Source of the DNA: Mucisphaera calidilacus
Lineage (GTDB): Bacteria; Planctomycetota; Phycisphaerae; Phycisphaerales; Phycisphaeraceae
Reading direction: 5' to 3'
Assembly (NCBI RefSeq): GCF_007748075.1
Contig: NZ_CP036280.1
Span: forward strand, 3,360,001-3,392,000
DNA: 32,000 bases
The notes below the pieces were generated by a model. It saw only the letters and a program-made list of their open reading frames with translations, did not search any database and was not told the DNA's origin. Made by a program: the position numbers and the translations under genes. This document shows positions 8,309-31,200 of the stretch, one piece after another (position 1 is the first letter of the stretch; each line of letters begins with the position of its first letter).

Positions 8309-8328
8309 GGCCGGGCTTGGGGCTCAGA
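8304..8328. terminator. possible bidirectional hairpin between convergent genes
   Basis: TCTGAG (8304-8309) and CTCAGA (8323-8328) form an inverted repeat with partial extra pairing inside. The arms contain both convergent stop codons (TGA 8306-8308; TCA 8324-8326). There is no U-tract. Confidence 0.2.
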
Positions 8329-8551
8329 TGGGTGTCCGGAAGCCCATGGCTCGGACGGCGCACCAGCCACGGAGTCCCTCGTAGAGCGTGAAGAGTCCGG
8401 CGAGGATCAGGATCGTGACGGCCAGCCACCACCAGCCGGACGTCAGCGATCCCGAGAGCACCACACCCCCGAGGATGATTCCGGCCGCGAGGTTGAGCAC
8501 GCCCAGCGTGATGCGCAGAACCTGGCCGCTACGATCAATGTTGCATTGCAT
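8324..8551 (-). CDS. DUF2892 (YgaP-like) small membrane protein
   Basis: 75 aa with two hydrophobic helices and a C-terminal ...LYEGLRGWCAVRAMGFRT, which resembles the DUF2892 signature (G.C..Y.llG..T) as I recall it. Confidence 0.65.
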   Translation of the reverse strand: MQCNIDRSGQVLRITLGVLNLAAGIILGGVVLSGSLTSGWWWLAVTILILAGLFTLYEGLRGWCAVRAMGFRTPI

Positions 8552-9196: not shown

Positions 9197-9685
9197 TCAG
9201 TCGTTGCACCAGCGTGTGCGGAAGTATTCGTCCACGTCACCGGGGCCGAATCCGGCGCGTTCGTAGAGTCGCTGGGCGGGGTTGTCGGTGCGGACTTCAA
9301 GGGTCATCTTGCAGCAGCCGAGTGAGCGTGCGACGCCATCGAGGTAATCGAGCAGGGCCTTGCCGATGCCCAGGCCGCGGTGTTCGGCGAGCACGGCGAT
9401 GTCGTGGAGATTGAGGACGGGCGCTGCCTTGAAGGTGGAGTAGCTGAGCATCGTGATGGCGTAGCCGACGGGTGCGCCGTCGAGCAGGGCGAGGTCGGCG
9501 CGGGCGGCGGGGTGGTCGCGCAGGTCGTTGACGAGTCGGGCGCGGATCTCGGGTTCGAGGGGTCTGCCCTGGCCGATGGGCTCGCGGGCGTAGGCGTCGA
9601 TGAGGCGGACGAGTTGTGCGCCCTCGTCGGGGTCGGTCAGATCGGCTTCCCGGAGGACGAGATTCTGGAGGACGTGAGGCATCAC
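9197..9685 (-). CDS. GNAT family N-acetyltransferase
   Basis: Acetyl-CoA binding core ...IAVLAEHRGLGIGKALLDYL...ARSLG...L.V..DN..A..LYERAGF. Start is GTG 9685 or ATG 9682, and the ATG overlaps the stop of the upstream PBP4 gene (GTGATG). Confidence 0.85.
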   Translation of the reverse strand: MMPHVLQNLVLREADLTDPDEGAQLVRLIDAYAREPIGQGRPLEPEIRARLVNDLRDHPAARADLALLDGAPVGYAITMLSYSTFKAAPVLNLHDIAVLAEHRGLGIGKALLDYLDGVARSLGCCKMTLEVRTDNPAQRLYERAGFGPGDVDEYFRTRWCND

Positions 9686-11207: not shown

Positions 11208-11558
11208 TCAGCCGTTGTTTCCGCCACCCTGCTGGCGTTTACGCGGGTCGATCTCGATGGTGCCGTAGGCCTGCTCGTAGCGTGTCACGGCCTGGCCGAG
11301 GGCCATGGCGAGTCGCTTGGCGGACCAGGGGCTCATGATGACGCGGGCGTCGATCTTCATGGTGGCCTGTCCCTGCCCGGAGGGCTGGATGCCACGGGAG
11401 ATGTCGACGACGATCTCTTCGGCCGTGCCCGAGACGCGGGCGGTCGAGGCGTAGTAGAACGGCGTGTCACTCTCGTCGATGCGGAGTTGCATCTGCTGCT
11501 GGCCCTGCTCGGGCGCTGCGACGGTCTCGTTCTGTTCGGGGGTCTCAGCCACGGGCAA
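11208..11558 (-). CDS. DUF3467 domain-containing protein
   Basis: ...FYYASTARVSGTAEEIVVDI...KIDARVIMSPWSAKRLAMALGQAVTRYEQAYGTIEI matches my recollection of the DUF3467 consensus. The track start (TTG 11558) is probably too early. GTG at 11552 has AGGA 7 nt upstream. Confidence 0.65.
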   Translation of the reverse strand: MPVAETPEQNETVAAPEQGQQQMQLRIDESDTPFYYASTARVSGTAEEIVVDISRGIQPSGQGQATMKIDARVIMSPWSAKRLAMALGQAVTRYEQAYGTIEIDPRKRQQGGGNNG

Positions 11559-11616: not shown

Positions 11617-13812
11617 TCAGATCCACCAATCGAGCGTCAGGGCCTGGCGGACGCGTCGCCACTGCTGAGGCCCGAAGCGCGTCCGGCCGACTTCGACCCG
11701 CGCCCGCCCGGTCATGCCATCGACCCACCAACGCGATGTTTCGTCAGCGGCGTCCAGCTCGATCCAGGCCAGCACCGACGGCCGACTGGGTTCGCCTTTA
11801 TACGGGTCACTCGGATTGGTGTCTACCTCTCCGCCGTGGGCCGTGTTGAGCGCGCGGTGCGGCACGGTGGCCATCACGCCGCGTTCGACGGCGGCCACGC
11901 GACCGGTGATCTCTTCCCAGGGCATGGACCAGAGGCGCATGCGGGCCGTGTGCCCGGGCTGGACGAGGGCTGCGTCGTCCTGGGGCACGACGAGCGCGAC
12001 GCGGGGCGCCTCGGAGCTGACGAGCATGCCCAGCGCCTGGCCGCGTGACACGCGCACGCCGAGCATGCCCTGCAGGCGTGTCCCGGCCATGACCCGGCCG
12101 GCCATGGTCGCCCGGATGATGAGCTTCTCGATCTGGGACTCGCCCAGCGCGATCTGCTCGCGGATCTGGTCTTTCTTGATCTCGGCTGCGGTGGCGTCGG
12201 TCAGCTCGCCGCGTTGTCGGAAGAGGGCAGCCTCGACCTCGAGGATGGAGAGTTCCACGCGGAGTTCCGCGACGCGGTCTTCCAGCCGTCGGTTGGAGAG
12301 GCGGACGATCGGTTCGCCGGCCTCGGCGAAGGAGCCGGTCTCGACGTAGACCTCGGCGAGTTCGCCATCGACGCGCGCGTAGATCGGCTGGTGGCGCTCG
12401 GCGAGCACCACGCCGGGGTGAAGGACGGTCTCGGTGACGGGGAAGAACCAGACCGTGCCGGCGATCAGCAGCGCCAGGCCGGCGACGACGGCGGACCAGG
12501 CGAGACGCACGCCGGACTGCGTCTGGATCGACCAGACGTGTTTCAGGCCCTTGTAGAGGGGCATGAGGATCATGGTCGTGAGCGCGAACATGCCCAGCAG
12601 GGCGCCCACGGCCTGCAGCCCGACGCCGTCGAGCAGGTGCCAGGCGATCAGCGTGATGCTGATGAGGACCATGGTGCGGTACGCACCGGCGGCGAGCGCG
12701 TAGCCCATGAAGAACCGTGGCATGCGCTCGGCCTCGTCCGGCTCCGGCTCGGTCGGCTCGACGCGGAGTGCCCAGAGGTCGAAGCGCTGCCCGAGGTACT
12801 TGATCGCCTTGGTCTGGAGGTTGGGCACCTCGACCCAGTCCATGAGGAAGTAGTAACCGTCGTAGCGGAGCAGCGGGTTGGCGTTAAAGAGAATCGAGGT
12901 CACGCTGGCCGAGAGCATGGTGTTGAAGGCGAGCTGGTTGACCCAGCCCGGCTCGGTGGCGATCCAGACCCAGACGGCAACCGAGGCGAAGAGCATCTCG
13001 ATGAAGACGCCGCCCGCGGTGATCCACAGGCGATCGCGTTTGTCGGGGAGCGTCCAGGCGTCGGAGGTGTCGACGTAGAACAGCGGGAGGAAGACCATGA
13101 GCATGACGCCGGTCTCGTGCACCTCGAGGCCGTGATGGTGCGCCGCGATGCCGTGGCCGATCTCGTGGATCACCTTGATCGTCAGGAAGACGGCGGTGAA
13201 GAGCAGGGCGTTGGTCCAGCTGAGCACGGGGAAGGCGAGCTGGCTGACGCCCTGGAGGTTCGCCAGCGCCACGGCGGCCGAGAGCGTCATCCACAGTACG
13301 GCGAAAATCATCATCGGCCGGGTCATGAACAAGCCGACGTAACGGTAGAGCCAGACGAGGAACGCCTCGGGGTCGAACAGCGGGATCTTGATGAACAGGA
13401 AGCTGCGTAGCTTGGCGGCGCGCATCTTCTTGCGGCGGGTGTCACGGATGCCGCGGATGCGTTTGGCCGAGTCCTTGTCGGTCGGGAGCAGCAGGCCCGC
13501 GCCGAGCAGCTGCATCGCGAAGGCCTGGATCTCTTCGGCGGACAGCTCGGTCTCGGGGAACCGCTCTGCCGCGAGCCGCTCGATCTCCGAGGCGGTCTTG
13601 TGGCCGTCGAGTTGTCGGTAGACGTAGTACTCGGCGGGCCTGAGCCGGAAGTAGGTGAGGCCCACGGGGTCCTTCACGACGTAGACGCTCTGGCCGTGAT
13701 AAAGCTGTGGCGAGATCAGCAGGTCGGCCCGTGCCGGCGGCAGGGGGTTCTCGCGCTGGCCGCCGCCGCCCCCGCCCGCTGCTCGTGCCCGTGGCTTGTA
13801 GGGATTCACCAT
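11617..13812 (-). CDS. fusion protein: PqqD-like (RRE-type) N-domain + M50 (site-2 protease-like) zinc metalloprotease membrane core + HlyD-like periplasmic adaptor C-domain
   Basis: aa ~31-110 (FRLRPAEYYVYRQLDGHKTASEIERLAAERFPE...FAMQLLGAGLL) parallels PqqD (..LVDG......I...L.ERFPE..). HEIGH lies at 13153-13167 and the second M50 motif NPLLRYDG at 12856-12879, among multiple TM helices. The C-terminal ~270 aa have a lipoyl-like hairpin (IYARVDGELAEVYVETGSFAEAGEPIVRL), a coiled coil, and IRATMAGRV plus a barrel. Confidence 0.8.
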   Translation of the reverse strand: MVNPYKPRARAAGGGGGGQRENPLPPARADLLISPQLYHGQSVYVVKDPVGLTYFRLRPAEYYVYRQLDGHKTASEIERLAAERFPETELSAEEIQAFAMQLLGAGLLLPTDKDSAKRIRGIRDTRRKKMRAAKLRSFLFIKIPLFDPEAFLVWLYRYVGLFMTRPMMIFAVLWMTLSAAVALANLQGVSQLAFPVLSWTNALLFTAVFLTIKVIHEIGHGIAAHHHGLEVHETGVMLMVFLPLFYVDTSDAWTLPDKRDRLWITAGGVFIEMLFASVAVWVWIATEPGWVNQLAFNTMLSASVTSILFNANPLLRYDGYYFLMDWVEVPNLQTKAIKYLGQRFDLWALRVEPTEPEPDEAERMPRFFMGYALAAGAYRTMVLISITLIAWHLLDGVGLQAVGALLGMFALTTMILMPLYKGLKHVWSIQTQSGVRLAWSAVVAGLALLIAGTVWFFPVTETVLHPGVVLAERHQPIYARVDGELAEVYVETGSFAEAGEPIVRLSNRRLEDRVAELRVELSILEVEAALFRQRGELTDATAAEIKKDQIREQIALGESQIEKLIIRATMAGRVMAGTRLQGMLGVRVSRGQALGMLVSSEAPRVALVVPQDDAALVQPGHTARMRLWSMPWEEITGRVAAVERGVMATVPHRALNTAHGGEVDTNPSDPYKGEPSRPSVLAWIELDAADETSRWWVDGMTGRARVEVGRTRFGPQQWRRVRQALTLDWWI

Positions 13813-13822: not shown

Positions 13823-15751
13823 CTAGAAGAGCGTCATCCGGACGTAGTGCCAGGCGTGGCGGAACAGACGCCAGCCAAGCGGGGCGTAGCCAAGGTCGAG
13901 TCGTGCCCGGCCGGTCGGTTCCGAGAGCGCCAGGTGCGGCTCGAGGCCGTCGAGACTGATGCCGGTGCGGAGCTCGTAACGCATCTGGCCGGTCGCGGGG
14001 TCGGGCACGCTGGAGGGCGAGAGGGTCAGCAGGCTCTCGTAGGTCACCCGCTGCTCGAGATCGGGCCAAGGCCGGCTCAGGAACGTCGCCCGGACGGGCT
14101 GTCCGGCCGTGAGCCGTGTCTGCACGAGGCCGACGTCCTGCTCGGGCACCTCGACCACCAGCTCGAAGCCGGAGAGGTCGCCGATGCTCAGCAGTTCCTT
14201 GGCCTGATCGACGGTGGTGCCCTCTAGTTCTTCGGGCCGCGTGCTGAGCACGACGCCTGAGATCGGGCTGCGGATCGCGGAGCGCTCGATGCGTCGCGAG
14301 AGCGAGGCCTCCTGGATGCGGAGCTGCTCGATGCGGAGGTCGGCGAGCATCATCTCGCCGGGGCGTTGCTGGGTGCGTGCGTCGCGGCGGGCCAGCTCCT
14401 GCTCGCGGATCGCGGAGCGCGTCAGCGCGCGTTCGGCGCGGACATCGGTGGTGTCGAGTTCGAGGATGACCTCGCCCTGCTCGACGGCCTGCCCGGCCTG
14501 AACGAGCACGCGTTCGACGGTGCCCGGGTAGGGCGTGGTGAGGGTGTGCAGCACGCGGGGCTCGAGCCGAGCGTCGACGCGCACCGCCATCGGGAAGGGC
14601 AGGATCATCGCCAGGAGCAGAGCGAGCAGCGCCATCATCAGCGCGCCGGACCGCCAGGCCGCCCGCCTCGGGTTGGTCCTGGCCTGCGCGAGGGTCTGGC
14701 CCAGGCGTCGCAGCGGCCGGGCTTCGAGCTCGATGGCACGCGCCAGGAAGGGGCCGACGCTCTCGGCCAGCTCGACCTCGCCGGGCGCGAGTTTACTGGC
14801 TTCGACGGCCTCGGCGTGCTCGACGATCAGGACCGCCGGCGTGCGTTCGTCTTCGGTGATTGGCGTGACGCAGACCGCCTGAGCCCCGCCCAGCTCGAAG
14901 AGCTGATCGACAAAGGGTTGGAGCTCGACGGCGTCGCCCTCGAGCACCTGCCCCTTCTGGAAGGCCATCGGCTGGCCGGAGGCACGCGTGGCATCGGCGA
15001 GGGTGCGGACGGCTTGGGCGAGGTTGGCCTTGGGGTTGGGATCAAGGGTGTCGGAGAACCACGCCTCGGGCTTCGAGCCCCAGAAACCGACGACGGCGGC
15101 CCGCTGGGCGTGGAAGAGCTGCCGCGCACCCTGAGCGAGTTCGTGGGCCAGGTCGCTCGGCTTCTCGATCCGGCCGAGGTTCTGCAGGAGCGTGAGCAGG
15201 GCGCGGTAGTGCGACGCGGAGCGTTCCACCAGTTCCGACTGGCGGTGGCCCATATGCCGCCCCATGGCCTCGGCGGCCTGCTGGCAGAAGGCGACGTACT
15301 CGCGGTAGAGCTTGGGGTCGAGCTCGCCGCTGCAGATCACCTGCAGGATGCCAAGCCGCTTGCGCCCGCTGCTGATCGCGAGGTAGAACTGCACGCCTCG
15401 GGTCAGGCCGTCGGGACCGTCCTGCATCTCGCCGGGCGGGACGACGACCGCCTGAGCCGGATCGTTCCAGGTCTTGCGCAGGGCGTTGGCCACGACGCCG
15501 ATCGGCGCGTGCTGCTCGTCGAGGACGCCTCGGGCCAGATCCCCCTCCATGGCGATGCCGCGGTAGGCCCTGCCGAGCGTGTCGGCGGCCAGCCAGACGA
15601 GTCCCGACTCGGCACGCATGGTCTCGACGACGACGTGGAGCACCTCCCGGGCCACCTCGGTGGGAGCGCGATCGGTGGCACGCGACAGTCGCTCGAACTG
15701 TTCGAGCGCCTGCTGGACGGCCTGCCGGGCTTGTGCGGTGAGATCCTGCAT
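13823..15751 (-). CDS. GAF-GAF sensor domains + single TM + HlyD-family periplasmic adaptor
   Basis: There are two GAF-like regions (...ESGLVWLAAD...FYLAISSGRKRLGILQVICSGELD...; ...AAVVGFWG...AVCVTPITEDERTPAVLIVEH...). These are followed by a TM helix (GALMMALLALLLAMILPFPM) and adaptor motifs (YPGTVERVLVQAGQAVEQGEVILELD, coiled coil, IRSPISGVVLS, barrel). Its stop lies 10 nt upstream of the next gene's start. Confidence 0.75.
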   Translation of the reverse strand: MQDLTAQARQAVQQALEQFERLSRATDRAPTEVAREVLHVVVETMRAESGLVWLAADTLGRAYRGIAMEGDLARGVLDEQHAPIGVVANALRKTWNDPAQAVVVPPGEMQDGPDGLTRGVQFYLAISSGRKRLGILQVICSGELDPKLYREYVAFCQQAAEAMGRHMGHRQSELVERSASHYRALLTLLQNLGRIEKPSDLAHELAQGARQLFHAQRAAVVGFWGSKPEAWFSDTLDPNPKANLAQAVRTLADATRASGQPMAFQKGQVLEGDAVELQPFVDQLFELGGAQAVCVTPITEDERTPAVLIVEHAEAVEASKLAPGEVELAESVGPFLARAIELEARPLRRLGQTLAQARTNPRRAAWRSGALMMALLALLLAMILPFPMAVRVDARLEPRVLHTLTTPYPGTVERVLVQAGQAVEQGEVILELDTTDVRAERALTRSAIREQELARRDARTQQRPGEMMLADLRIEQLRIQEASLSRRIERSAIRSPISGVVLSTRPEELEGTTVDQAKELLSIGDLSGFELVVEVPEQDVGLVQTRLTAGQPVRATFLSRPWPDLEQRVTYESLLTLSPSSVPDPATGQMRYELRTGISLDGLEPHLALSEPTGRARLDLGYAPLGWRLFRHAWHYVRMTLF

Positions 15752-15776
15752 TGCAGCGTTCGGTGTCGGCCGGACT

Positions 15777-15797
15777 TGAGTGATCTATGTTCACTCA
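15777..15797. promoter_or_regulatory. 7+7 bp palindrome TGAGTGA-n7-TCACTCA (operator or 5'-UTR hairpin candidate)
   Basis: Perfect inverted repeat read directly, 15777-15783 and 15791-15797, located 26-46 nt upstream of the ATG of the GAF-HlyD gene. Chance occurrence in a region this size is not negligible. Confidence 0.25.
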
Positions 15798-15813
15798 GGC
15801 GATCCGACAGAAT

Positions 15814-15842
15814 AGTTGAACCGACCTCAACCCCGCTGTCAA
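15814..15842 (-). promoter_or_regulatory. candidate sigma70-like promoter for the minus-strand operon
   Basis: On the minus strand: TTGACA (plus coordinates 15837-15842), a 17-nt spacer, then TCAACT (15814-15819). The -10 element is weak and planctomycete promoter rules are poorly known. Confidence 0.2.
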
Positions 15843-15970
15843 TCTCGTTTTTTTCTCCCGGCGGGGGTGAACGCGCATCAACGGCTTTATCCTTACAGTG
15901 ACCTGACAGAATGTGTGGTCGGAACTGTCCAGATCGCTTCCCCAACGCGCGCTCACAAGGCCCCTCAATC

Positions 15971-15999
15971 TTGACACCCACACTGAAGCGCGTTTAGCT
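15971..15999 (+). promoter_or_regulatory. candidate sigma70-like promoter for the giant gene
   Basis: TTGACA at 15971-15976, a 17-nt spacer, then TTAGCT at 15994-15999 (poor -10). This would give a ~210-nt leader. Confidence 0.18.
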
Positions 16000-16215
16000 T
16001 TCACTGTTGACCCGATCGTGTCCGTTATGGTCGTTTGAGTGATAGGGGCGTGATTTGCGTAGTGCCGCCCTCCCGCATGGGATCAACCGCCCGAGCCATC
16101 CTTCTCCTTACTCATCCTCCCTCAACGCGCCCACGATGCATAGGTCTCCGGAGACGGATGGAACGTTACACAGCCTCACAAACCGTGGCCTGACAGCAGA
16201 CTGAAAGGTGTGTCC

Positions 16216-19200
16216 GTGTTCTCACGCAAAAAGCGACGTACAGCGATGAAGAAACGGTCGAGCAAGCAGCAGCAGGCGAAGCAGCCGGCGCGCAAGAAGA
16301 GCAGGCTCCAGCTCGAAGCCCTCGAGCCTCGTGTCCTGCTCACGACGCTCTTCGGCGGCGACACCTTTGTCTACACCGACGCCAACGACAACAACGTCGA
16401 GGTGCAGATCGAGGGCGACGTCATCGTCGAACTCATCGCGGCCCAGTACAACCCCGCCATCGACGGCTTCGAGATCGGCAACCTGCCCGGCCTGCTGCTG
16501 GCCGACGGCGGCGGGCTCAACTCCCCGATCATCGGACGCACCAGCTCCTCCATCACCGTCTTCAACGACGACGGGGCCGCGGTCAACAACGTCTACGGCG
16601 CGATCAACGGCGGGCTCAACGGCACCATCGGCTCCACCTTCTGGACCGACATCAGCTCGTTCATCATCCCCGACACCATCACCGGGGTCACGGTGCCCGA
16701 GGACGACGCGCTCGAGTACCAGTCGATCGCCACCAACGCGGCGGGCGACACCTACGGCTTCCTGGTCCTGCCGCGCACCTACGTCGATGCCAACGGCGAG
16801 GAGTTCGAACAGAACGAGATCTTCGTGGTCAGGCTCGACTCCACCGAGGGGGGCACGACCCACGAGCTGATCGCCTCGTTGTCCAATCTGCAGGGGGGGC
16901 TGGGCTCCGGCGGCCCCGACGCGATCGGGCCGCTCTACAACCTCGAACTCGATGCCGATACCAACGCCGCCGACTGGGAGCCGCTGGTCCGCGCCGCCGA
17001 CTTCAACCCCGGCGACGGCCTGCTCTACTTCGTCGTCGAGGCCGAGGACCCCACCATCGGCTCGCCGATCGACAAGCTCTTCGCCTACGACGTCGAGAAC
17101 GACGTCACGTTCCCCGTCGTGGACCTCGAAGGATCACCCGCCGATCCCGCCGACCCCGCGCCGCTCTTCCCGCCCAGCGAGGAACAGTTCATCTCGTCCA
17201 TGGCCTTCGAGGTCACCGGACAGGAAGACGGCAACAACACCTACCGCATGGTCTTCTGGATCGACGTCGACGACGAGGAGATCGGCGGCCAGCTCGCCTG
17301 GGTTGACGTGACCGAGGACCCGACCGACGACCTGCGGAACACCATCGCTACGCAGGCCTCGGACAGCGCCAACTTCAGCTTCTCGGGGGCGCTCGTCGAC
17401 CCCGCCACGGTGCGCGAGGACGACCCCACGAACATCACCGGCGTCACCGGCATCGAGTTCTTCGGCGACAACACCCTCAACACCGAGCAGTTCCTCTACA
17501 TCGTCGACGGCGACAACGCGCTGCTCTACCAGGTCGACATGACCGACACCAGCCAGGTCCGGACGATGGGCGTCACGACCGACGGCGACCCCGACGAGCC
17601 GAACGGCGAGAACCTCGCCGGCATGGCCTACGACGCCAACACGCTCAACCCCTTTACCGGCACGCCCGGCGTCTTCTTCGCCACGGACACCGAGACGGAC
17701 AACCTGGTCATCCTCGACCACCGCTTCCGGCCCTCCACCGAGGCGGGCGCCGGTGCCGATCTCTTCATGATCTACGTCACCAAGGGTGACTCGGAGAACG
17801 GGCGCATCCGCATCGCGATGCGTAACGACGACATCTTCGTGACCGGCAACGAGGACCCCCGCAGCCTGACGCCTTACGGCGGCGAGGCGTACGAGTGGTC
17901 GGCGGCGCTGACCGACGGGACGCCGACCATCACGCCCCCCGGCGGCTCGGGCGGCGTGCTCATCGGTGCCGTCGATGATCCGGACAGTGACATCCCCGTC
18001 AACGTTCTCGACCCCGTTTACGTCGGCAACCTCCCCGAGGGCCGCAACGAAGTCCCCGACTTCGTCACCTACCCCTACCTCTTCGACACCCACGTCAACC
18101 TCAACCAGGGCACGCCCGAGGACGAGGGCCCCGACGTCGCGCCGGGCGTTCAGATCTCCGCGTCGCTCTGGGACTACTACTCGGGGTCGCTGCTCGGCTC
18201 GCTGATGGGCAACAACATCGACGTCGTGACCGAGGCCGCCATCAGCGCCGACGGCACGCGTCTGGCGCTCATCGACTCGGACGGCGTCGACGCGCTCGGA
18301 CGCACCGTCGACGAGAACGGCGACTTCATCGGCGACGAGCTGTTCGTCTTCAACCTCAGCACGCTGCAGCTCGAGCAGTCGACACGCATCTTCTCCAACG
18401 CCTCTGGCTCACGCGCCACGCTCAGCAACATCCAGGGCCTGGACTTCGGCGACTTCGACTCCGACGGCGTCGACGAGCTGTACGCCATCTACAACGCCGG
18501 CGGCAGCGCCAGCGTCGGCGTCCTGCAGGTCGGGTCGAACGGCCTGTTCACCGGCGAGTTCATCGCCAACGCGGCCATCAGCCGCGCGCCCGGCAGCCCG
18601 CCCGCCACCAACACCGCGCCCGCCGCCGACGACATCCGCATCACCCTGCGCGACGGCACCAACATCGACGTCGACCTCGACCAGCTGCCCGACCTGACCA
18701 CCGTCACCCTCCAGCAGCTCATCGACGTCATCAACGACGATCCCGACAACCTCGCCAACCCCGACGCGAACATCGGCGGCAAGCTCCTCGAGGTCCGTGG
18801 CAACAACACGCTGCTCTCCGACTTCAAGGTGGGCAACTTCACCCACCTCGAGTTCATCGACCGCAGCAGCCTCTTCTACATGATCGACAACGGCAGCTCC
18901 ACGCTCGCCAGCGCACTCGGCCTCGACAAGGTCGACGGCTCCGACCGCATCAACGAGAACCAGCTGCCCGACGGCACCCTCAGCGCCGGCCTCGCCTTCG
19001 AAGACATCTACGCCCGCCTGCACGACGACACCGTGCTCCACGACATCCAGGACGCCCAGGGCGAATCCCTCTTCACCGCCGCGGGCGTCAACACGCTCCT
19101 GAGCAACGGCGCGGGCGTTGTTGACTTCACCATCGAGACGCGCGACGGCAACACCTTCGAGGTCGATCTCGACGGCGCCGCCTTTGCGGCCCTCGACGAC

Positions 19201-22200
19201 ACCAGCACCCTCGACGACTTCATCACCGCACTCGGCACGGTGCAGGACACGACCGCCACAACCGACATCGCGACCGCGCTCAACTTTGCTGTCACCGGCC
19301 GGCTGCAGATCACCGATACCACCGTCTTCGACGACAACAGCATCTTCCGGGTCGTGATCGCCAACGACAGCACCGCGATGGCGCTGCTCGGCCTGACGTC
19401 GACCAACGCCGAGGACTCCACGGGATCGACAACCCGTATCGACGGCAACACCGTCGACAACATCACCGGCAACCTCGCCATCAGCCTTGATACCCCGATC
19501 GACGCCCTGCTCGACCGCAACCTCAATCCGGTCGATGTCACCGACGCCGACATCACCCTCAAGGGTCAGGACGGCGCGCCGCAGAACTACACCTTTGTCG
19601 CGGGCAACACGCTCCAGACCATCATCGACGATCTCGCGCCGGACGACTTCACGCTGAACATCGCGCCGGGCACCGCGGTAACCCTCGACGACGGCAACGC
19701 CGCCGGCACCACCATGCAGCTCAGCGACCAGGCCGGCTCGAGCTTCTTCAGCCAGCTCTTCTTCGGGACCAACGAGACCGGCACCGCGGCGATCGACGAC
19801 GACAGCGCTCCCGACGTCGCCGGCAGCAACCCGGGCATCATCCGCCCCGACGATTTCTTCTCCACCGGCCAGACGATCACGCCCGCCGCGCAGCTCAGCG
19901 CGATCTGGGCCAGCGAGATCACGGGACGCGTGCAGGCCTTCGCGATCGACCCGATCACCCAGCACGGCTTCGCCATCGACGACGGCTCGGTCGACGGCAC
20001 GTCGCTGATCGAGTTCAACCTCATCACCGGCGCCGCGATCCGTTCGGGCCTGCTCCCCGATCAGCTCGACGGCGCGGACACCACCGCACGCTTCGGCACG
20101 ATGGACTTCACCAGCGACGGCAACCTGCGCGCTCACGACGTCGCCACCGGCAGCCTGATCACCATCGACACCACGAATTTCCGCAGCGGCCTGCTCTCCG
20201 CCGCGAACATCCCCTTCACGGGCAACCAGCGGATCGCGATCGACCTCCAGGACGGCACGACCGACTTCTTCGTCGACCTCACCGGAGCGAACGACTTCCA
20301 GGGCATCATCAACCGCATCCAGTCGGCGACCAACGGCAACGTCTCGGTCACGCTCGGCGGGGCCAACTCGCTCATCCTCACCGACAACACCGCGGGCGGC
20401 GGCACCTTCGCCATCCGCAACGCCGCCGGCACCAATGCGGCGACGCTGCTGGGCATCAACACCGTGGACAACGGCGGCGGCGACCTGCGAGCCGACGTCG
20501 GCATCATCCAGGGCCAGCCCAACTTCACCGCGGTCAACATCGACCCGACCCTGAGCACCGTCTCGGGCAGCATCGGGCCGGACATCGGCGCGATCACGTT
20601 CAACAACGCCACCAGCGAGTTCCTCGGGCTGAACAACGCCCTGAGTGTCCACCGCCTGCTGAACGAGGCGGGTTCCAACGAGTCGGCGGCGCTCGTCCGC
20701 CTGGCCGGGTTCGAGGCCGGCGACGCCGAGGGCCAGGACCTCCGCGACCTGTTCATCGGCGGCACGCTCACCGGCGTCTTCTACGGCACCGGTTCGATCG
20801 AGACCCTCTACGTCGGCTGGGCGATCACCGGCGACGCCACCGGCAAGAACACCGGCCTGTTCACCAACACACTCGATCACGACTTCATCCTGCTCGGCGA
20901 CGTGCGCGACCTGATCTTCTCCTCCTCCGTGGGCGGCTCCGACGCGCTGGAGACCACCTTCAACGTCACGCCGCTGCTCACGACCGGCACCGACATCTCG
21001 GTCGGCGGGACCATCGGGCGGCTCATGGTCGCGCGTCCGGGCTCCGGCCTCTACGCCGACGTCACCGTGCTCAACCCCGTTGAGTTCAACGACGGCATCG
21101 ACTACGACGACCTGCCCTACTCCGAGATCGAGGGCAACAACGACCCGAACATCACCGACCGCATCACCCAGAAGTGGTCGCTGCCCGAGATCGAGCCCTA
21201 CGCCACGCTCTACGCCGGCGACGGCCGCTTCTCCAACGACAGCTTCGAGACGGCCGAGCCGCTCGGGGCACTGCGCAACGGCGGCATCGACGGCTCCGAG
21301 GCCCTGACGGTCCGCGGCACGCTCTATTCCGGGATCAACGACGACGACCACGTCGACTACTACAGCCTCGGCCTGCTCGCCGGGCAGACCATCACACTCG
21401 ACCTGGTGCCGGTTCTCGACATCGACTTCAACCCCTTCCGCGTCGGCATCTTCGACCCGGACGGCCGACTCGTCGCCACCAACTACGCGCACGTTGACAA
21501 GGTGCGCAAGGCCAGCGACTTCTTCGAGTTCACCGCCGACATCCCCGGCGAGTACCGCTTTGCTGTCGGCGTCTTCACGAACCCGCTCTTCGAGGACGGC
21601 GGCGACACGATCACCGCTGAGTACAACCTCGACATCTTCGGCGTCGGCAACATGGGCCTCGGCGGCGTCGTCGCGACCAACATCGCCAACAACATCATCA
21701 GCGTCGCGCAGGGCGACATCGGTGCGGTCCGCGCCGACACCAACCAGATCGCCAACGTCGGCTTCCTGGCCGGCCGCAACATCCGCTCGATCGACGCGGC
21801 CGACGACATCGGCTACCGCGAGGGCGAAGACATTGTTGATTTCAGCATCATCGTCCAGGCCGGAGGCGACGTCGGCCTGATCCGCCAGCAGTTGGGCATC
21901 GGCGAGGGCACCATGCAGATCGGCAGCCTGTTCGCGGGCGGCGACGTCCAGATGATCGAGGCCGGCGGCATCTTCATCGGCAACCTCTCGATCGACGGCG
22001 GCCTCGGCGTCCTCCGGGCCGGTGGCATCAACGGCAGCGACACGGCCGGCGGCGACTACGAGGGCCCGATCAGCAACATCCGGGTCAACGCCGACAACTC
22101 GCTCGACGGCGACGGCATCATCGACCTGATCGACGTCGCGGGCGACCTCGGATCGAGCGCCCAGGCCCCGAACAACACCGTCGTCATCGGCGGCCCCTCC

Positions 22201-25200
22201 ATCAGCACCGGGCCCGACGGCAACGTGCGCTATATGCGCGTCGGCGGCCTGATCTACCAGAACAACGACTTCGGCGCCGGCCAGTTCGGCGAGTTCCGGC
22301 TCGACGCCGGCGAGGGCGCCACGATCGTCGACGACAGCGGCGCGACCGTGCGCATCGCACCGGTCGACACCGGCGAGGTCGTGACCAACGAGGACGGCAC
22401 AACCCCCGACGAGGACGACCCCGTCGCCTTCCTGACCTACCGAACCTTCGCGATCGCCGACGGCGGCTCGGTGCTCGTCGACATCCACTCCTCCGGCGGC
22501 GTCTCGATCGTCGGCAACAGCCTCGGCACGGGGGCCCCGGTCGAGATCGGCGCCATCTACGCCAACGGCCAGGGACGCGCCGTCACGATTAACGAGGAAG
22601 AGGGCTTCGCCGAACTGCCCGAGCTCGAGGTCTTCGAGGAAGAGATCGACCTCTACGTCAGCATCGGGGGCGGCCACAACAACCCCGTCCACGTCTACTA
22701 CGTCGGCACCGATGGCGACGACAACGGCACCTCCGAGACGCGCGGCCAGTTCAGCGCCATCACCAACAACACCGGCGGCGAGATCGTCAACATCGAGGCC
22801 GCCACCATCGGCACCCTCAGCGTCGACGGCGTCGTCGGCTACGGCCTCAGCTACGCCACCGACTCGGCGGTCCGCGGCTTCCTTCTCACGCAGGACATCA
22901 TCGCGAATGAGAACATCGCCACGGTCGTCACCGCGCCGCGCACCGGTGTTGTCTCGGGCAGCATCGAGAACGTCCGCACCGACACGGCACTGGGCAACTT
23001 CTTCGTCTCCGGCATCGTCACCAGCGTCCGCGCCGACGCCGACGGCATCGACGACCCCAACCTCTTCGAGGGCGTCAACGGCGCGTTCATCGTCATCGAC
23101 GATTCCGGGCTCGAGATCCTCAACGGCAACATCTTCAGCTTCGACGTGGGCGAGGGCATCTCAAGCTCGGGCTCCGGACAGTTCGCCGAGGCAGGCATCT
23201 TCGCCATCGGACGCATCGACGGCGGCTCCCTGATCATCGGCACGGGGGCCATCGGCTCGATCACCGGCCGCGACGCGGCGATCTACGGCGACATCTACGC
23301 CGACATCTCCATCCAAAACATCAGCCTCACCGGCGATTCGGTCATCAGCGGCGGCGACATCCTCGTGACCGCCGGTTCGGCTGCGACGCTCCAGCTGCTG
23401 GACCCTCTTGTCCTTATCGACGGCGGCCTGGCCAGCGGCCTGAGCATCAACGACCCCGACCCGGACGCCGTCGCGCTTGGCGAGCGGCAGCGTGTCGGCC
23501 TGAACAACATCAACGTCAATGGCACCGGCGGCATCATCGGTGCCTTCATCGGCGGCCCGCTGATCGGCAACATCACCGTCAACAACGGCTTCGGCATCTT
23601 CAACTCCGTCGTCGCCTCCCCCGGCACCGAGGGGACCATCAACAACCTCAACATCGACGGCTACGGCCTCCGCGGCACCTACGTCACCAGCAAGGGCGAC
23701 ATCAACAACATCCTCGTCAACGGCCGCGGCGAGCAGCTCGCCGTCACCGACTTCTCCGTCCACGCACGCTCCAGCGAGTCCGTTGGCGTCGATCCCGCCA
23801 CCGGCATCGCCTTCGACCCCGCCACCGGCCTGCCCATCGACCGCTACAACGACCTGCACCGGTTCCTCGGCACCGACGCGACCACACCCGGGACCAGCGA
23901 CCTCGACAACGCGGGCGTGATCGACAGCGCGGTCATCCAGACCGCCGGCAACCTCACCGGGCAGATCCGGGCTTACCAGATCGCCTCCACCTATGACCCC
24001 TCCGACGAGCACCCCTTCAACGACCAGATCCTCTCGGACACCCTCGGCAACGCCCTGCCCGCCTACACCTACATCAACGTCGCCGGCAAGCTCAACAAGC
24101 TCATCCTGACGAGCACCGCCGCAAACCTCCAGGATCATCACAACATCAACACGGTCGCCGGCCAGTCGCTCGGTATCGACCCGTTCACCTCGCTGCCCAC
24201 GGAGCTGGCCGACGTCTCCATCGCCGGCCTCTCGATCACCGCGGGCGAGCTGGGGACCTTCACGCCGGGCGCCAACGTGGTCGGCCTCGACCTCACCGTC
24301 GACGGCCTGATCCGCAACCTCAACTTCAAGGGCGACCTGCTCTCGCTCACCGAGCTGGATCCCATCCTGACCTCCTCCATCGAGGCCAGGGGACCGGGCG
24401 GGCAGATCACCAACCTCACCGTCGCAGGCGACATGCAGGCCGATATCTTCGCCACCAACTACATCAACCGTGTGACGATCGATGGCGACCTCACGGGCAC
24501 CATCACGGTGCTCCGCGGCGACCTGCGCGGCCGCGGGCTGGGCACGCTGACCCTCGGCGGCGACCTGATCGACGGCGGGCTCGATATCGAGGGCGACGTC
24601 AACGCCATCCGCATCGACGGCAGCGTCGGCAACCCGCGCAACGCGTTCGACGAGATCGCCGACCAGCTGCTGATCACCGGCAACCTGGGCACCTTCCAGT
24701 CCGGCCAGCGCGTCGACGGCGCCAACATGGCCCTGGACCTGGTGGTCCTGGGCGACATGCGCACCCTCGACGTCTCGGGCATGTTCACCGGCGAGCTGTT
24801 CGTCGGCGGAGACCTGGGCAGCTTCCGCGTCGCGGCCGACGCCGTCACCCGCGGCACCACGATCATCGGTTCCGAGTTCGGCGACGTCGACGTCAACGTC
24901 AGCGGGACGATCGGCTCGGTCACCGTCAGCAACGGCCACGTCGGCGACGGCGAACTGGACACCAACAACGACGCGGTCCTCGAACGCGTGCGCATCAACG
25001 CCGGAGAGGGCATTCGCAATTTCTCGGTCACCAACGGCAGCGTGCTCGCCGACGCCCAGGTCGCGTCGGCGCTCGGCGACATCAACGCCATCACCGTCCG
25101 CGGCGGCGACTTCCACGGACGCGTCGACGCCAACGCCGGCACCGTCAGGAACCTGCGCCTCTCCGGGTCCGACTTCGGCGGCTCCCTCAACGCGCTCGAG

Positions 25201-28200
25201 CTGTCGAGCTTCACCATCGACGGCTCGCTGCTCACCGGCGCCACGATCGACGTGGACGAGGCGGGCCGGATCTCTATCGGGCAGGACATCCAGGCCGGCG
25301 TCGTGGTCACGCTCGGCTCCGCGCAGTCGCTCACCGTCCGCAACGACCTCAACGGCACCCTCCTCGTCGAGGGCACGAGCAGCAGGCTCAACCTCACCGT
25401 CAGCAACGACGTCACCGGGCAGGTGTTCCTCGGCGCCGACGCGAACATCCGGATCGGCGGCGACCTCGACTCCAGCACGCCCATCACCGTCGACACGACG
25501 CTCGCCGAGCTGGGCATCGTCGGCTCGCCCGGCTCCTCCATCGAGGTCCAGCTCCGCGACGGGACCGCCCCGCGCGTCGTCGACCTCACCGGTGTGTCCA
25601 CCATCGCGGAGCTCAAGGCCGCCATCGAGGCCGAGGTGCCCTTCGTCATCGTCAGCATCGACGACGACCAGGAGGCCATCCGGCTCACCGACGAGTCGCC
25701 CGACAACGGCGCGACCTTCTCCGTCACCGACCTCGGCAACGGCACGATCGCCCGCACGCTCGGCTTCAACACCGCCGACGGCGGGGCCGGCGACCGCGAC
25801 AACAACGCCAACGGCACCATCGAGGGCGCGCCCATCGGCTTCGGGCTTGTCCAGGGCACCTCGCTCGAAGACCTCGGCGCCGACATCGCTCCCGACAGCG
25901 ACCTGCGCTTCACGCTCAGCGACGGCTCGAGCCTCTCCGTCTCGCTCGCCGGTGCCGAGTCCCTCCAGGACATCATCGACGCCATCAACGCCGTCAGCAT
26001 CAACCTCACCGCGGGTCTCGACCCCACCGGCACGGCGCTCCAGGTCACAGACGCGACCGGCAACGGCCTGCAGATCCAGAACGGCGTCGACTCGCGCATG
26101 GCCGAGCGGCTCGGCCTGCTCGCCACCGACGGCGCGCTCGGCGACAACGACGGCGCGCTCGACGGCACCATCACCGGCTCCCGCCTCAGCGGGGCGCTGC
26201 TCTACATCGACGGCGACGCGAGCAACCTCAGCATCGACAGCGTCAACGGCGGCGTCTTCGTGACCGGCGAGCTCAGGAGCCTCAACGCCAACAGCATCGA
26301 CGCCTCCGTCATCGTCACGGGACAGGACCTCGGCAGGATCAACGTCCGCAACGACATCAGCAACACCCTTGTCCAGGCCGGACTCCTGCCCACGGCCAGC
26401 ATCGAGCAGGTCGCGCTGCAGATCCGACAGGACCTGCCCGGGCAGGCGGTCGTCCTCTACAACCCGGTCGACGGCACCGACGCCAGCCGCGGCGAGATCG
26501 GCAGCCTCAGCGCCGTCAACCTCACCGAGTCCGTCATCGCGGCGGGCGGCGAGTTCGGCACCCTCCGCCTCAGGGGCGGCATGACCGACAGCTCTGTCTC
26601 CTCCGGCATCGTGTTCGGCGTCACCGCCGTCAACGACGCCGCTCGTGACGCCACCACCCTCGGCACCGCCGCCGAACGCAACGACGCTCGCGGCACCGCG
26701 GGCGACCGCGTCCTCACCCAGGGCGACTTCGGCAGCGCCACCATCTCCGGCAGCGTCGCCACCAGCGCCATCACTGCCGGCATCGACCCGGGCGACGACG
26801 GCATCTTCGACGCCAACGCCACCAGCCTCGTCGGCGCACCCGCCGCCAACGACAGCAATATCTACAGCTCCACCACCGGCGGCCAGAGCGCGATCGGCAC
26901 CCTCAACGCCGGAGCCTGGGACGGCGCATCCCTCGGCCTCTCCGACGGGCCCATCAGCAGGACCAACCTCCCCGGCGGGCAGCAGGGCATCTTCGACTAC
27001 ACCATCGAAGCCATCGACGGCGCGGCCGGCAGCCCCGTCGCGGCCCTGCCCGTTACCGTCATCGCACCCAACGCCGACGGCACCATTACCGTCCCCGGCG
27101 CGACCGGCTCGCTCATCGTCCGGCCCGCGGGCGGCGCGACCGTCGTGGTCTACGACGACAACGCCGCCGACGACACCATCGACGCCATTGTCATCACCGG
27201 CGGCGCCCGCAACGCCAGCCTGACCATCACCGGCGACGGCGCGAACGACCCCGCCGACTGGGCCATCGAACGCATCCTCGCCGACGACGACGCCTCGCTC
27301 GCCACCCTCCGGTTCGACGGGCTGCTCACCGGCGACGACGCCACGGGCACCGTCGACCTCTGGCTCGAGTCAGGCCTCAGCACGCTCGTGCTCGGCGGGT
27401 TCGCCGAGACCACCGCCAACGGGCTCACCGGCCGTATCGCCGGCGACATCCGCACCGCCGACCTCGGCACCGTCGGCGGCGGCAACCTGACCATCGGCGG
27501 CGAGGTGAGCAGGCTCACCCTCGGCGGCAGCGAGAACTCGCCGGTCCTCGGCAACGCGGCCGAGTCCGCCTCGCCGGGCATCACCGAGATCACCTTCACC
27601 AACACCGGCCTGTTCTATTCCTTCGACGGTAACACTGGCCTCTTCCAGTCCAGCGACACCACCGACGTCGCCACCTTCGCCATCGCCGACAACGGACCGA
27701 GCACCATCGCCGCCGACCTCGGCATCGCGGGCACCGACGGCGCCGCGGGCGACACCGACAACACCGACAACAACGCGATCCTCGGCACGCAGCTCTCCGC
27801 CGACCCCATCACCCTCGACACCACCCTCGCCGACCTGGGCATCGACCCCACCGGCGGCAACGTCGACTTCGCCTTCCGCGACGGCAACACGGCCACCATC
27901 GACCTCTCCGCGGCCACCACGCTCCGCGACGTCGCCAGCATCCTCACCGCCGATTCCGAGGGACGCCTCTACACCACCCTCACCGACGACGGCGAGCTGC
28001 GCATCGTCGAGACCAGCACCACCACACGCGTCAGCATCGACGACACCCTCGCGTCGGGCGTCGAGATCAACCCCGGCGAAACACTCACGATCAGCCTCCG
28101 CGACGGCGGCGACGACCTCACCATCAATCTCTCCAACGTCTACACGCTGCAGGACCTCATCGACGCGGTCAACACCCAGTCCTTCCGCTTCTTCACCGAC

Positions 28201-31200
28201 CTCGGCGGAACGCCCTACCGCGACGCCGAGGGCAACCGCGTCCTCGACACCACCACCGGGCCGCTCGTCACCGCACGCATCAACGACGAGGGCAACGGCC
28301 TGGTCTTCGAAGACCAGACCGCGGGCGGCAACACCTTCCAGATCAACGTCGACGATCCTGACTCCGACCTCATCACCATCTTCGGACTCGACGCCACCGA
28401 CGGCGGCGTCGGCGAGGGCGCCTCCGACGGCAACCTCATGACCGGCAGCATCCTCCTGACCGAGGCGATCAAGACCGACCTCCGCGACGTGCTCGGCAGC
28501 GCCGCCGGCAACACCTTCGACCCGACCAACACCCTGCGCCTGAGCATCGACCTCCGCGACGGCTCCAACGGCGTCATCGTCGACCTCACCGGGCTCAGCA
28601 CCTTCGAGGACGTCGCTCAGGCCATCTACGACCAGACCGACCAACGCGTCACCCTCGTCACCGCGGGCGGCGCACGCATGGTCGCGATCGACAACTCCAC
28701 CGACAACGGCGGGACCTTCGCCATCGCCGATGCCGTCGGCGACCTCGCCGAGAAGCTCGGCATCGCCGCCGTCGACGACGGGGCCGACCCCAACGACCAG
28801 GACGGCGCCCCGAACGGACGCATCCTCGGACGCGGACTCGTCACCCTTGAGACGCAGCTCAGCGTCTTGGGCGTCGCGGTCAACGGCGACGAGGTCCTCA
28901 GCTTCGACCTCGCCGGGGCCGACCCCGCACGCACCGGCTTCACCGTCAACCTCGTCAACTTCACCGTCAACACCGTCGGCGACCTCATCAACGCCATCGA
29001 GACCGTCGCCGGCAATTTCCCCGTGGTCGGCAACGGCCTCACGGTCGAGATCGTCAACACCGACTTCGACGGCAGCTACCTCGTTGTTTCCGACAACGGC
29101 GGCTCCTCGGCACTCCGCATCACCGACGTCGAAGGCACCATCGCACAAGACCTCGGCATCAGCGGCTTCGACGGCGGCCCGACCGACGACGACGGCGCAG
29201 CCGACGGCACCTTCTCGTCCATCAACCTCTTCATCCGCACCGCGACCCTCGCCGACTCCAGCGTCAGCTTCGCCGGCGACCAGGTCCTCGACCTCGCCCT
29301 CGACGGCGGCGTCGCAACCGCCACCCTCTCCGACGTCGACACGCTCGCGGGCGTCATCAACGCCTTCGAGGCCGACGACAACGTCCGCGCCGGCTTCGAC
29401 GGGCTCGGACGACTCGTCCTTATCGACACCACAGGCGACGGCGGCTTCACCATCACCCAGACCAGCGGCGACGCGGCCGTCGCGCTCGGCCTGCTCCCGA
29501 CCGATGGTCTCGCGGGTGTCGCCGACGGCGTCATCAACACCCTGCCCATCACCCCCGTCGTCACCGAGAACACCTCGTTGCTCGGCGGCCTGGGCATCAA
29601 CTTCCAGGACGAGCTGGCCATCACCGTCCAGCTACGCGACTCGAGCGTCTTCAGCATCGACCTCTCCGAGGCACGCACCGCCGAGCAGGTCCTCGACGCT
29701 ATCAGCCGCGCAACCTCCGGTCTCGTCTCCGCCGAGTTCGGCGCCGGCGGACGCATCATCCTCACCGACAGCTCGATCGGCGCCGCCAGCTTCTCCATCA
29801 GCGACACCTCGGGCGTCATCGCACAGCGCCTGGGTATCGCAGCCACCGACGGCCTGGTTAATGACGTCGACGGCGTAGTCGACGGCGTGATCCTCGGGCG
29901 GTCCATTATCCAGACCTCCACACGCCTGAGCATGCTCGGCATCGACCCCGCCAACGGCATCGTCGACGTCGACTACCGCGACGGCACCAGCAGCACCATC
30001 GACCTCTCCGGAGCACGGTCCGTCGCCGACGTCGCCGCCACCCTGGCCGCCGATTCCTCCGGCAGGCTCTCCGTCACCATCACCACCGACGGCAGGCTGC
30101 TCGTCACCGACGGCTCCAGCGGAGGCGGAACCTTCGCCATCGCCGACAACAATATCTTCAGCACCATCGCCCGGGACCTCGGCATCGACCAGACCGACGA
30201 CGGCAGCGACAACGACGGCGTCGCCAACAAGCAGATCCTTGGCAACCGCCTGATCGCCTCGCAGGCGACCCTGCCCGCGGCACTCGGCGCCGGCCAGACC
30301 CTCCGGCTCAACCTCCAGAGCGGGGCCACCGTCGACGTCGACCTGTCCAACGCCAACACCTTTGGCGAGATCATCCACAAGATCAACATCGACGCCGCCG
30401 GCCTCGTCTCAGCACGGCTCGCTTCCGACGCGCGGCTCGTGATCACCGACCTCACCGCCGGCGGCAACGTCTTCTCCATCGCCGATCAGGCCGGCACGCC
30501 CGCCACGACCCTCGGCATCGCCGCGACCGACGGCGGCGCAGGCGACCAGGACGGCGAACTCGCCGCCGACGGAACCATCAAGGGCACCAGCCTCTACGGC
30601 GACAACGCGGCGGCCGTCAACCTCTTCGACCTCGGTATCAGCTTCGTGGCCGGTGACGCCTTCACCATCACCACCGCCGACAACGTCACCACCGTCATCA
30701 ACGTCGCGGCCGCCACCACCCTCGACGACCTCATCACCGCCATCGAGACCGCCCCCAACGTCTCGGTCACCGTCGGACTCGACGGCGGGCTCAACGTCGA
30801 AGACACCTCCGGCGGTGCGACCGTACCCTTCCGCATCTACACCGACGCCGGACAGAGCAGCAACGCCCTCGAACAAATCGGCCTCGAAGCCTCCGACGGC
30901 GGCGCGGGCGATCTCGACGGCTCCTCCGACAACACCATCACCGGAACCAGCATCGTCACCGCCGCCACACGCATGTCGCTCCTGGGCATCGCCGCCACCG
31001 GCGCCGAAGAACTCGTCCTCACCCTCCACGACGGCTCCACCCGTGTCGTCGACCTCACCGACACCACGACCATCGGCGAGGTCATCGAGGCGATCCAGAC
31101 CCAGACCGCCAACGACGTCACCGTCGTCATCGACCAGGCCGGGCGACTCCTGCTCACCGACACCACCGCCGACGCCGGCGGCGCCTTCACCATCAACAAC

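Follow-up and report, generated by a model that had tools for sequence, protein, structure and literature searches.

The 32,000-nt stretch of the Mucisphaera calidilacus genome analysed here (contig NZ_CP036280.1, forward-strand positions 3,360,001 to 3,392,000; hereafter the window) includes a minus-strand gene for a 731-aa fusion protein, in which a PqqD-like domain of the kind known as a RiPP (ribosomally synthesised and post-translationally modified peptide) recognition element (RRE) is joined to an M50 membrane protease and a HlyD-type periplasmic adaptor. The gene belongs to an operon that diverges from the gene for a giant protein with an N-terminal LEPR-XLL match, and a conserved, cross-phylum operon link connects the fusion to LEPR-XLL proteins, TolC, extra adaptors, DUF3467 and a SecA paralog. 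The features of the locus are as follows.

11208..11558, minus strand: DUF3467 gene, 116 aa, directly downstream of the fusion gene (PF11950, 60.3 bits)
11617-13812, minus strand: 731-aa open reading frame (ORF) of the fusion (RRE, M50 protease and adaptor)
13823..15751, minus strand: gene for the GAF-TM-HlyD partner (TM, transmembrane), 642 aa, upstream of the fusion gene (Pfam GAF, HlyD_D23 and HlyD_3)
15752..16245, no strand assigned: divergent intergenic region between the operon and the giant gene (blastn, tblastx)
16246..32000, plus strand: giant LEPR-XLL gene, at least 5,250 aa, divergent from the operon (open frame, translation, NF012209)

The stop of the GAF-HlyD gene lies 8 nt ahead of the fusion gene start, and the gap between the two genes is 10 nt. 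Within the fusion gene, the following segments were delimited.

13483..13749, minus strand: RRE/PqqD-like winged-helix domain, aa 22-110 (Pfam, PDB profile, AlphaFold2 (AF2) model, Foldseek)
13333..13482, minus strand: basic linker, aa 111-160, joining the RRE to the first TM helix (sequence)
12445..13332, minus strand: M50/site-2-protease membrane domain, aa 161-456 (Pfam, NCBIfam, AF2)
13153-13167, minus strand: zinc-site motif H216-E-I-G-H220
12856-12879, minus strand: zinc-site motif N312-P-L-L-R-Y-D318-G
11617..12444, minus strand: C-terminal periplasmic adaptor (membrane fusion protein/HlyD), aa 457-731 and the stop codon (Pfam, Foldseek)

The original prediction, made from the letters of the window, placed a PqqD-like domain at 13483-13722. 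These coordinates are correct, the peptide quoted for the domain being aa 31-108 of the fusion on the minus strand, and the likeness to PqqD is real, as Pfam, the PDB profile search, the AF2 model and Foldseek all agree. In the full-length fusion, PF05402 (PqqD) matched aa 45-108 with 20.9 bits (E=4.6e-4), slightly below the gathering cutoff of 23.4 bits, and the isolated domain (aa 22-125) passed this cutoff with 25.1 bits (E=2.3e-5). PqqD was also matched in the domain region of 48 of 54 diverse family members, with a best E-value of 8e-9. When a profile of the domain was searched against all PDB sequences, the top matches were PqqD (3g2b, E=0.0086) and the lasso-peptide RRE TfuB1 (6jx3_B, E=0.011). 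The AF2 model of the domain (pLDDT 89.6) consists of three strands (aa 32-38, 41-48 and 53-57) followed by three helices (aa 59-67, 74-84 and 92-104). The Foldseek comparison proposed with the original prediction returned best PDB matches that were all RREs, namely leader-bound TbiB1 and TfuB1, PqqD, the sactisynthase RRE of CteB, and LynD, with probabilities of 0.63-1.0 and TM-scores, normalised to discrete RRE/PqqD targets, of 0.61-0.71. The segment aa ~22-110 is a genuine RRE/PqqD-type winged helix. In homologs from planctomycetes and proteobacteria, R28 and D48 of this domain are invariant and R56 is nearly so, and the mean column identity is 51% for the RRE versus 41% for the whole protein. 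As the RRE is conserved beyond the whole protein, this fits a conserved ligand and not the diverse leaders that are typical of RiPP systems.

The fusion of this domain to an M50 protease and an adaptor was borne out by Pfam, the full-length AF2 model and Foldseek. In the full-length model (pLDDT 86.5), the RRE is followed by a long basic helix, then by seven TM helices, and last by an adaptor with an alpha-hairpin. The long helix lies in the linker (aa 113-136, KRIRGIRDTRRKKMRAAKLR... in the DSSP output for the AF2 model), and 26 Lys and Arg residues fall within the N-terminal 158 aa of the fusion. The TM helices are predicted at aa 165-184, 199-226, 258-285, 290-310, 365-395, 400-430 and 434-455, and a beta-hairpin is found at aa 234-247 inside the membrane domain. 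Pfam Peptidase_M50 matched aa 205-303 with 27.5 bits (cutoff 27.2), and the two hallmarks of M50/site-2 proteases, HExxH in a TM helix and a downstream Asp in an NxxPxxxxDG-type motif, are both present. Both zinc-site motifs, with the residues H216, E217, H220 and D318, are invariant in 36 homologs, and are kept in the proteobacterial members as well. The C-terminal part is covered at aa 473-643 by Pfam HlyD_D23 (40.2 bits, cutoff 30) and HlyD_3, its alpha-hairpin spans aa 508-562, and in a Foldseek search with the full-length model it matched MacA, MexA, AcrA and EmrA with E-values of 5e-14 to 1e-10. Given the odd number of TM helices, the basic linker and an adaptor that must be periplasmic, the RRE is predicted to lie in the cytoplasm, N-terminal to the M50 protease; the predicted topology is thus consistent with the cytoplasmic side named for the domain in the original prediction. 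Homologs are mostly named 'HlyD family efflux transporter periplasmic adaptor subunit' by PGAP, and several are auto-annotated as 'PqqD family peptide modification chaperone'.

The giant gene was missing from the list of ORFs because its frame runs off the window. This frame is open from 16144 to 31998 and continues past the window end, and its start lies at or before the ATG at 16246. The N-terminus of the translation, MKKRSSKQQQAKQPARKKSRLQLEALEPRVLLTT (...RLQLEALEPRVLL), matches NCBIfam NF012209 (LEPR-XLL) with 17.3-17.5 bits against a cutoff of 17 when the N-terminal 48-60 aa are scanned in isolation; the match is not reported when a 2,584-aa fragment of the giant is scanned whole. A weak match of the N-terminus to Pfam Planc_extracel was also found, and a search of the giant in pieces of ~2,600 aa against Pfam and NCBIfam gave nothing useful. 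The candidate leader is aa 1-32 (MKKRSSKQQQAKQPARKKSRLQLEALEPRVLL), in which the motif LQLEALEPRVLL is encoded at nt 16306-16341, and the N-terminal stretch that spans it reads KKSRLQLEALEPRVLLTTLFGG. Taking the neighbouring giant to be the 1,427-aa minus-strand ORF at 18409-22692 was mistaken, the real gene being the plus-strand frame open from 16144. That ORF has a low-complexity translation made up of V, D, G, A, E and R, without family matches, and was rejected as an antisense shadow. Similar shadows of plus-strand genes, all on the minus strand, are seen at 5222-8293, 23161-25116 and 27370-29148 in addition to 18409-22692; these ORFs are rich in the same six residues and lack family matches, and the DNA has a GC content of 67%.

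Upstream of the giant gene, the segment 15992-16245 is ~70% identical at the nucleotide level to the corresponding sequence in two relatives, L081 and L082 (blastn, tblastx). Read in the giant's frame it gives ...SRLKGVSVFSRKKRRTA-M, which is kept in the relatives as SRLKGVPVFSRQKRRSA. The true start of the giant may therefore lie upstream, for example at a GTG, and give a longer basic leader, or the segment may form a conserved 5' leader RNA. The intergenic regions of the window yielded no conserved small ORF, and in the region 15752-16245 stop codons break every frame except that of the giant. The conservation detected in the intergenic search was the nucleotide-level similarity upstream of the giant gene, together with unrelated small membrane proteins.

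The fusion family is represented by 451 matches among 8,000 candidates scored, and by more than 580 stretches in GTDB species genomes. Related loci in Planctomycetota were then compared. The GAF-HlyD partner was found in 62 of 80 loci, and most of the 80 also have an adaptor of ~317 aa with a signal peptide directly upstream. In 20 of 87 loci, a DUF3467 gene lies within 10 kb, with rare exceptions on the same strand. The close relatives L081 and L082 (65-67% identity) repeat the whole arrangement of the window, with orthologous giants of 6,793-7,030 aa at the corresponding position. More distant members usually keep DUF3467, and the giant neighbour is kept in some only. A divergent LEPR giant is retained in L001 and L005. 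LEPR-type N-termini within 10 kb were found in 10 of the 87 loci, representing ~9 independent lineages, and mostly belong to genes that directly flank the cassette. Approximately six of these ten genes lie within 2.2 kb, versus ~22% under uniformity, a post hoc and hand-binned comparison that is suggestive only. The gene order in L033 is SecA-like, GAF-HlyD, short adaptor, fusion, DUF3467 and LEPR protein. A truncated SecA paralog stands beside the cassette in L033 (4463-6481) and also in L016 (6930-9143), L010 and L017.

A tblastn search of PLSDB identified 68 plasmids, from Alpha-, Beta- and Gammaproteobacteria, that encode the architecture over its full length (aa ~22-728, 25-31% identity). 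Fourteen plasmid loci were inspected, and as the Rhizobium johnstonii locus lies at the start of its record and is uninformative, 13 were informative. A large or giant protein is encoded beside the cassette in all 13, in Tistrella within 5 kb. Two arrangements were distinguished. In type A, found in E. coli, Azospirillum, Burkholderia and Kosakonia, the order is giant, TolC, short adaptor, HlyD (~450 aa) and fusion; Eleftheria has the type-A genes in the order TolC, short adaptor, giant, HlyD and fusion. In type B, found in Pontibrevibacter, Methylosinus, Alisedimentitalea, Thalassospira, Mesorhizobium and Pseudosulfitobacter, the order is giant, DUF3467, GAF-HlyD, fusion, SecA paralog, short adaptor and TolC; individual loci lack some of these genes or have them in another order. 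In Sinorhizobium, an unannotated giant ORF occupies the position of the type-B giant. On five proteobacterial plasmids, the DUF3467 gene separates the giant gene from the adaptor genes, and the Pontibrevibacter adaptor carries a Pfam GAF domain. Annotation and inspection of the 13 plasmid operons, two of which come from records without a gene table, revealed no ABC, RND or MFS pump gene and no RiPP enzyme. The full type-A operon of E. coli plasmid NZ_CP081687.1 (44829-64580, L087) includes a gene for a 4,459-aa Ig-like LEPR-type protein, and the E. coli operon was found in 24 of 5,426 complete genomes, for the most part on plasmids. Genes for a 'tail fiber protein' adjoin the type-A operons on the Azospirillum, Burkholderia and Kosakonia plasmids (L093, L096 and L106), and the Burkholderia operon is also adjoined by a tape-measure protein gene.

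In type B, the gene right after the fusion gene encodes the truncated SecA paralog at the following positions.

L088, 10106-12091: truncated SecA paralog
L094, 14171-16087: truncated SecA paralog
L089, 10090-12048: truncated SecA paralog

The SecA-like gene is annotated in five plasmid loci, as 'DEAD/DEAH helicase', 'prepilin peptidase', 'SecA' or 'translocase', the first two of these names being misleading. Three of the proteins were scanned with Pfam and contain SecA_DEAD, PP_bind (preprotein cross-linking) and P-loop domains in only ~650 aa. According to a giant-gene preprint, similar SecA domains without the scaffold and wing regions are embedded in giants of Omnitrophota. Truncated SecA domains appear in the papers on giant genes, whereas the cassette described here does not.

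The plasmid giants were read for the N-terminal motif, which has the consensus of a basic stretch followed by phi-x-x-L-E-P-R-x-L-L. The pattern [LM]E[PSA]Rx-phi-phi after a basic stretch was found in all 11 plasmid giant N-termini that could be read.

E. coli, giant N-terminal motif: FALESRQLFDGA
Pontibrevibacter, giant N-terminal motif: MLDPMEPRVLLSAD
Alisedimentitalea, giant N-terminal motif, upstream of the mis-called start: VEQLEPRLLLAAD
Azospirillum, giant N-terminal motif: MALEPRFMFDAA
Burkholderia, giant N-terminal motif: LALEPRVVYDAS
Methylosinus, giant N-terminal motif: FDTLEPRVLLNAD
Thalassospira, giant N-terminal motif: VEPIEPRILLSAD
Eleftheria, giant N-terminal motif: WALEARLMFDAA
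Mesorhizobium, giant N-terminal motif: FEALEPRLLLSAD
Kosakonia, giant N-terminal motif: WSLEPRMLFDGA
Tistrella, giant N-terminal motif: QALEPRMMFDAA

In Alisedimentitalea (NZ_CP123586.1; L091, 1726-1878), 51 in-frame codons upstream of the annotated gene hold the basic stretch and VEQLEPRLLLAAD, and the annotated start of this 8,148-aa 'calcium-binding protein' therefore appears to be mis-called. As the frequency of a looser screening pattern in ORFs away from N-termini is only 0.13 per 1,000 aa, the presence of the motif in 11 of 11 N-termini is not due to chance. The leader subtypes track those of the RRE, with ...FD[AG]A in type A, ...LLSAD in type B and ...LL[TSA][TA] in planctomycetes; this fits co-evolution of leader and RRE, but is confounded by phylogeny. 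Several of the giants carry the name DUF4347, perhaps after the domain next to the leader. No function has been assigned to the LEPR-XLL ('Planctomycete extracellular') tag in the open-access literature searched, and no description of a PqqD/M50-HlyD-TolC system with LEPR-XLL proteins was found there.

The best named match of the fusion is NCBIfam NF041824, daptide_HExxH (E=2e-46), which aligns with aa 47-422 and so includes part of the RRE; its score of 158.8 bits falls short of the equivalog cutoff of 300. A second NCBIfam match, YydH/LiaK, has an E-value of 1e-10 and 41.6 bits, versus a cutoff of 225. In daptide systems, MpaP is an RRE-dependent intramembrane leader peptidase in which the RRE is fused N-terminally to a site-2 protease, and precursor leaders carry ELExMEAP, or ELDPMExP in MpaA (PMC10028931). 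Fusion of an RRE to a site-2 protease is thus already known, and the architecture found here is a variant of the RRE-site-2-protease leader peptidase. As in MpaP (Ren et al., PMC10028931), the RRE is N-terminal to the site-2 (M50) protease, with aa 22-110 followed by aa 161-456, and the leader motif ELExMEAP/ELDPMExP resembles L-E-x-L-E-P-R. The core of the N-terminal motif in the window's giant reads L-E-x-L-E, and one plasmid giant has LDPMEPR, sharing LDPME with MpaA; the likeness to the daptide leader is suggestive. Unlike MpaP, however, the fusion has a C-terminal TolC-docking adaptor and a GAF-HlyD partner, and its candidate substrate exceeds 5,000 aa. Unlike daptide loci, which have been found in Actinobacteria or Bacilli, the host here belongs to Planctomycetota, and the daptide genes (MpaB, C, D and M) are absent. 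The window gene map and the related loci lack a DUF-RRE protein, an oxidative decarboxylase, an aminotransferase and a methyltransferase, as well as short precursors ending in Thr.

The winged-helix fold is shared with PqqD and with the B1 proteins of lasso-peptide systems, and TbiB1 (5v1u), TfuB1 (6jx3) and PqqD (5sxy) are the best structural matches. In lasso B1/B2 pairs, the leader-bound RRE passes the substrate to a peptidase, as proposed below, but that peptidase is a soluble cysteine protease, the substrates have 30-50 aa, and no membrane or export parts are fused. C39-ABC, HlyD and TolC exporters combine cytoplasmic recognition of a leader, its cleavage and exit through an adaptor and TolC in the manner proposed here, and giant adhesins are typical cargo of type I secretion. 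In contrast to type I secretion, neither the window operon nor the 13 plasmid operons have an annotated or recognised ABC transporter, and some of the plasmid operons have the truncated SecA paralog as a possible motor. The protease is an M50 zinc enzyme and not C39, the receptor would be an RRE, and the candidate signal is an N-terminal LEPR-XLL sequence, not a C-terminal RTX signal or a GG leader. The fusion shares with SpoIVFB, RseP and RasP an intramembrane M50 protease that contains HExxH and an NxxPxxxxDG-type motif, and SpoIVFB in particular has a cytoplasmic accessory domain and removes an N-terminal pro-sequence from a protein, pro-sigma-K. The accessory domains of these proteases differ from the RRE in being CBS or PDZ domains, their role is in signalling, and none has a fused adaptor.

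It is on balance fairly probable, from the domain content and the gene linkage, that the RRE-M50-adaptor protein docks a LEPR-XLL leader, clips it, and couples the export of large or giant proteins to TolC. Many LEPR-XLL proteins are giants, with lengths from 2,000 to more than 10,000 aa, and in the window the substrate would be the product of the divergent gene starting at 16246, which has at least 5,250 aa. In the cytoplasm, the RRE would bind the N-terminal leader, probably as an added beta-strand against beta3 and alpha3, as in other RREs. It would then hand the leader to the membrane-embedded zinc site, which would cut it off by analogy with MpaP and SpoIVFB/pro-sigma-K. The fused and partner adaptors would link the inner-membrane complex to a TolC-type channel for export. 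Predicted partners of the fusion are GAF-HlyD and DUF3467, and elsewhere also the short adaptor, TolC and the truncated SecA paralog, which is a candidate motor where present. A wider proposal, that the fusion is the signal receptor and signal peptidase of an undescribed, TolC-coupled and ABC-independent LEPR-XLL secretion pathway common to Planctomycetota and Alpha-, Beta- and Gammaproteobacteria, is possible but is made more tentatively.

The original prediction also held that the substrate is selected through an N-terminal leader, either that of an unannotated small peptide or the N-terminus of the giant. The second option is favoured by the LEPR-XLL match and the plasmid linkage. The first would have the RRE select a small RiPP-like precursor, as in daptides and YydF, with the giant gene as a bystander. 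RREs are best known from RiPP pathways, the closest named families (daptide_HExxH and YydH/LiaK) are RiPP leader peptidases, and small ORFs of less than 70 aa were examined in the window's clade only. Nevertheless, this explanation is highly improbable: both NCBIfam scores are far under their cutoffs, the only conserved small gene is that for the 116-aa DUF3467 protein, and no tailoring enzyme or conserved short ORF was seen in the window, the relatives or the plasmid operons. Specifically, no tailoring gene of any type, whether radical-SAM, dehydrogenase, aminotransferase, methyltransferase or other, adjoins the cassette in the window, in the five relatives that have called genes and retain the cassette, or in those plasmid operons for which gene tables exist. 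Even less credible is that the fusion is a generic efflux adaptor and protease whose adjacency to the giant in the window is coincidental. The efflux name given to most homologs by PGAP and the absence of a LEPR neighbour from most planctomycete loci are in line with this, but a large or giant protein is encoded at the cassette in 13 of 13 informative loci from three proteobacterial classes, the motif occurs in 11 of 11 readable N-termini versus ~0.013 per 100 aa by chance, and none of the operons has an annotated or recognised RND, ABC or MFS pump gene next to the cassette.

A further explanation accepts that the machine serves the giant, but assigns the RRE a role in assembly or regulation, with DUF3467, the SecA paralog or GAF-HlyD as its binding partner, and has the M50 domain serve either as a scaffold or as a protease for quality control that removes stalled substrate. 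The range of partners bound by winged-helix domains is wide, the planctomycete cassette is usually not next to a LEPR gene, and in DUF3467, the most frequent extra neighbour (20 of 87 loci and five plasmids), a conserved N-terminal stretch, Q-L-x-I-D-D/E-S, might be bound as a strand. However, type-A operons, which have neither DUF3467 nor the SecA paralog, still keep the RRE and the LEPR-type giant, which leaves the LEPR-type substrate as the sole constant partner besides the adaptors, and the catalytic residues are invariant. This explanation is therefore considered unlikely. Leader docking and clipping by the fusion, the preferred reading, has several points against it. Most planctomycete loci (77 of 87) have no LEPR-type gene within 10 kb, and LEPR-type N-termini recur in planctomycete genomes, so background adjacency may occur there. 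The synteny of the window, L081 and L082 reflects shared ancestry and is not independent evidence. The plasmid loci were hand-picked for taxonomic spread and are not a random sample, and PLSDB gene tables are incomplete. The Foldseek E-values of the domain are only ~1e-2 to 0.3, and the daptide-leader likeness rests on 4-5 residues. No TolC, short adaptor or SecA paralog was seen in the window.

If the RRE reads LEPR-XLL, an orphan sorting signal gains a receptor and a peptidase, and RiPP recognition elements have a role that reaches beyond small peptides to giant proteins. A domain whose only known setting is the biosynthesis of peptide natural products would then have been recruited as the reader of a protein-secretion signal, and a new envelope-spanning secretion machine would be defined. 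The export of bacterial proteins of 5,000-10,000 residues without a classical signal peptide is poorly understood, and the presence of the same operon on E. coli plasmids, in Azospirillum and in rhizobia makes the question directly testable. For genome mining, an RRE match fused to M50 and HlyD is not evidence of a RiPP cluster.

The DUF3467 protein has a Gln/Glu-rich tail, followed by the conserved Q-L-x-I-D-D/E-S stretch, and gave no match in a search against PDB sequences. Its identification as a SecB-like chaperone was considered and rejected, as hhalign against E. coli SecB gave a probability of 0.2% and no PDB sequence was matched. The remainder of the window gene map is as follows.

292-8308, plus strand: pyruvate kinase, PurE, PurK, RND adaptor and AcrB-type pump
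8324-8551, minus strand: conserved 75-aa protein with two TM helices (MQCNIDRSG...WCAVRAMGFRTPI), between the RND pump and GNAT genes
8600-9010, minus strand: 118-136-aa protein, kept in relatives, between the RND pump and GNAT genes
9197-9685, minus strand: GNAT acetyltransferase
9682-11202, minus strand: PBP4

The proteins encoded at 8324-8551 and 8600-9010 are probably unrelated to the cassette.

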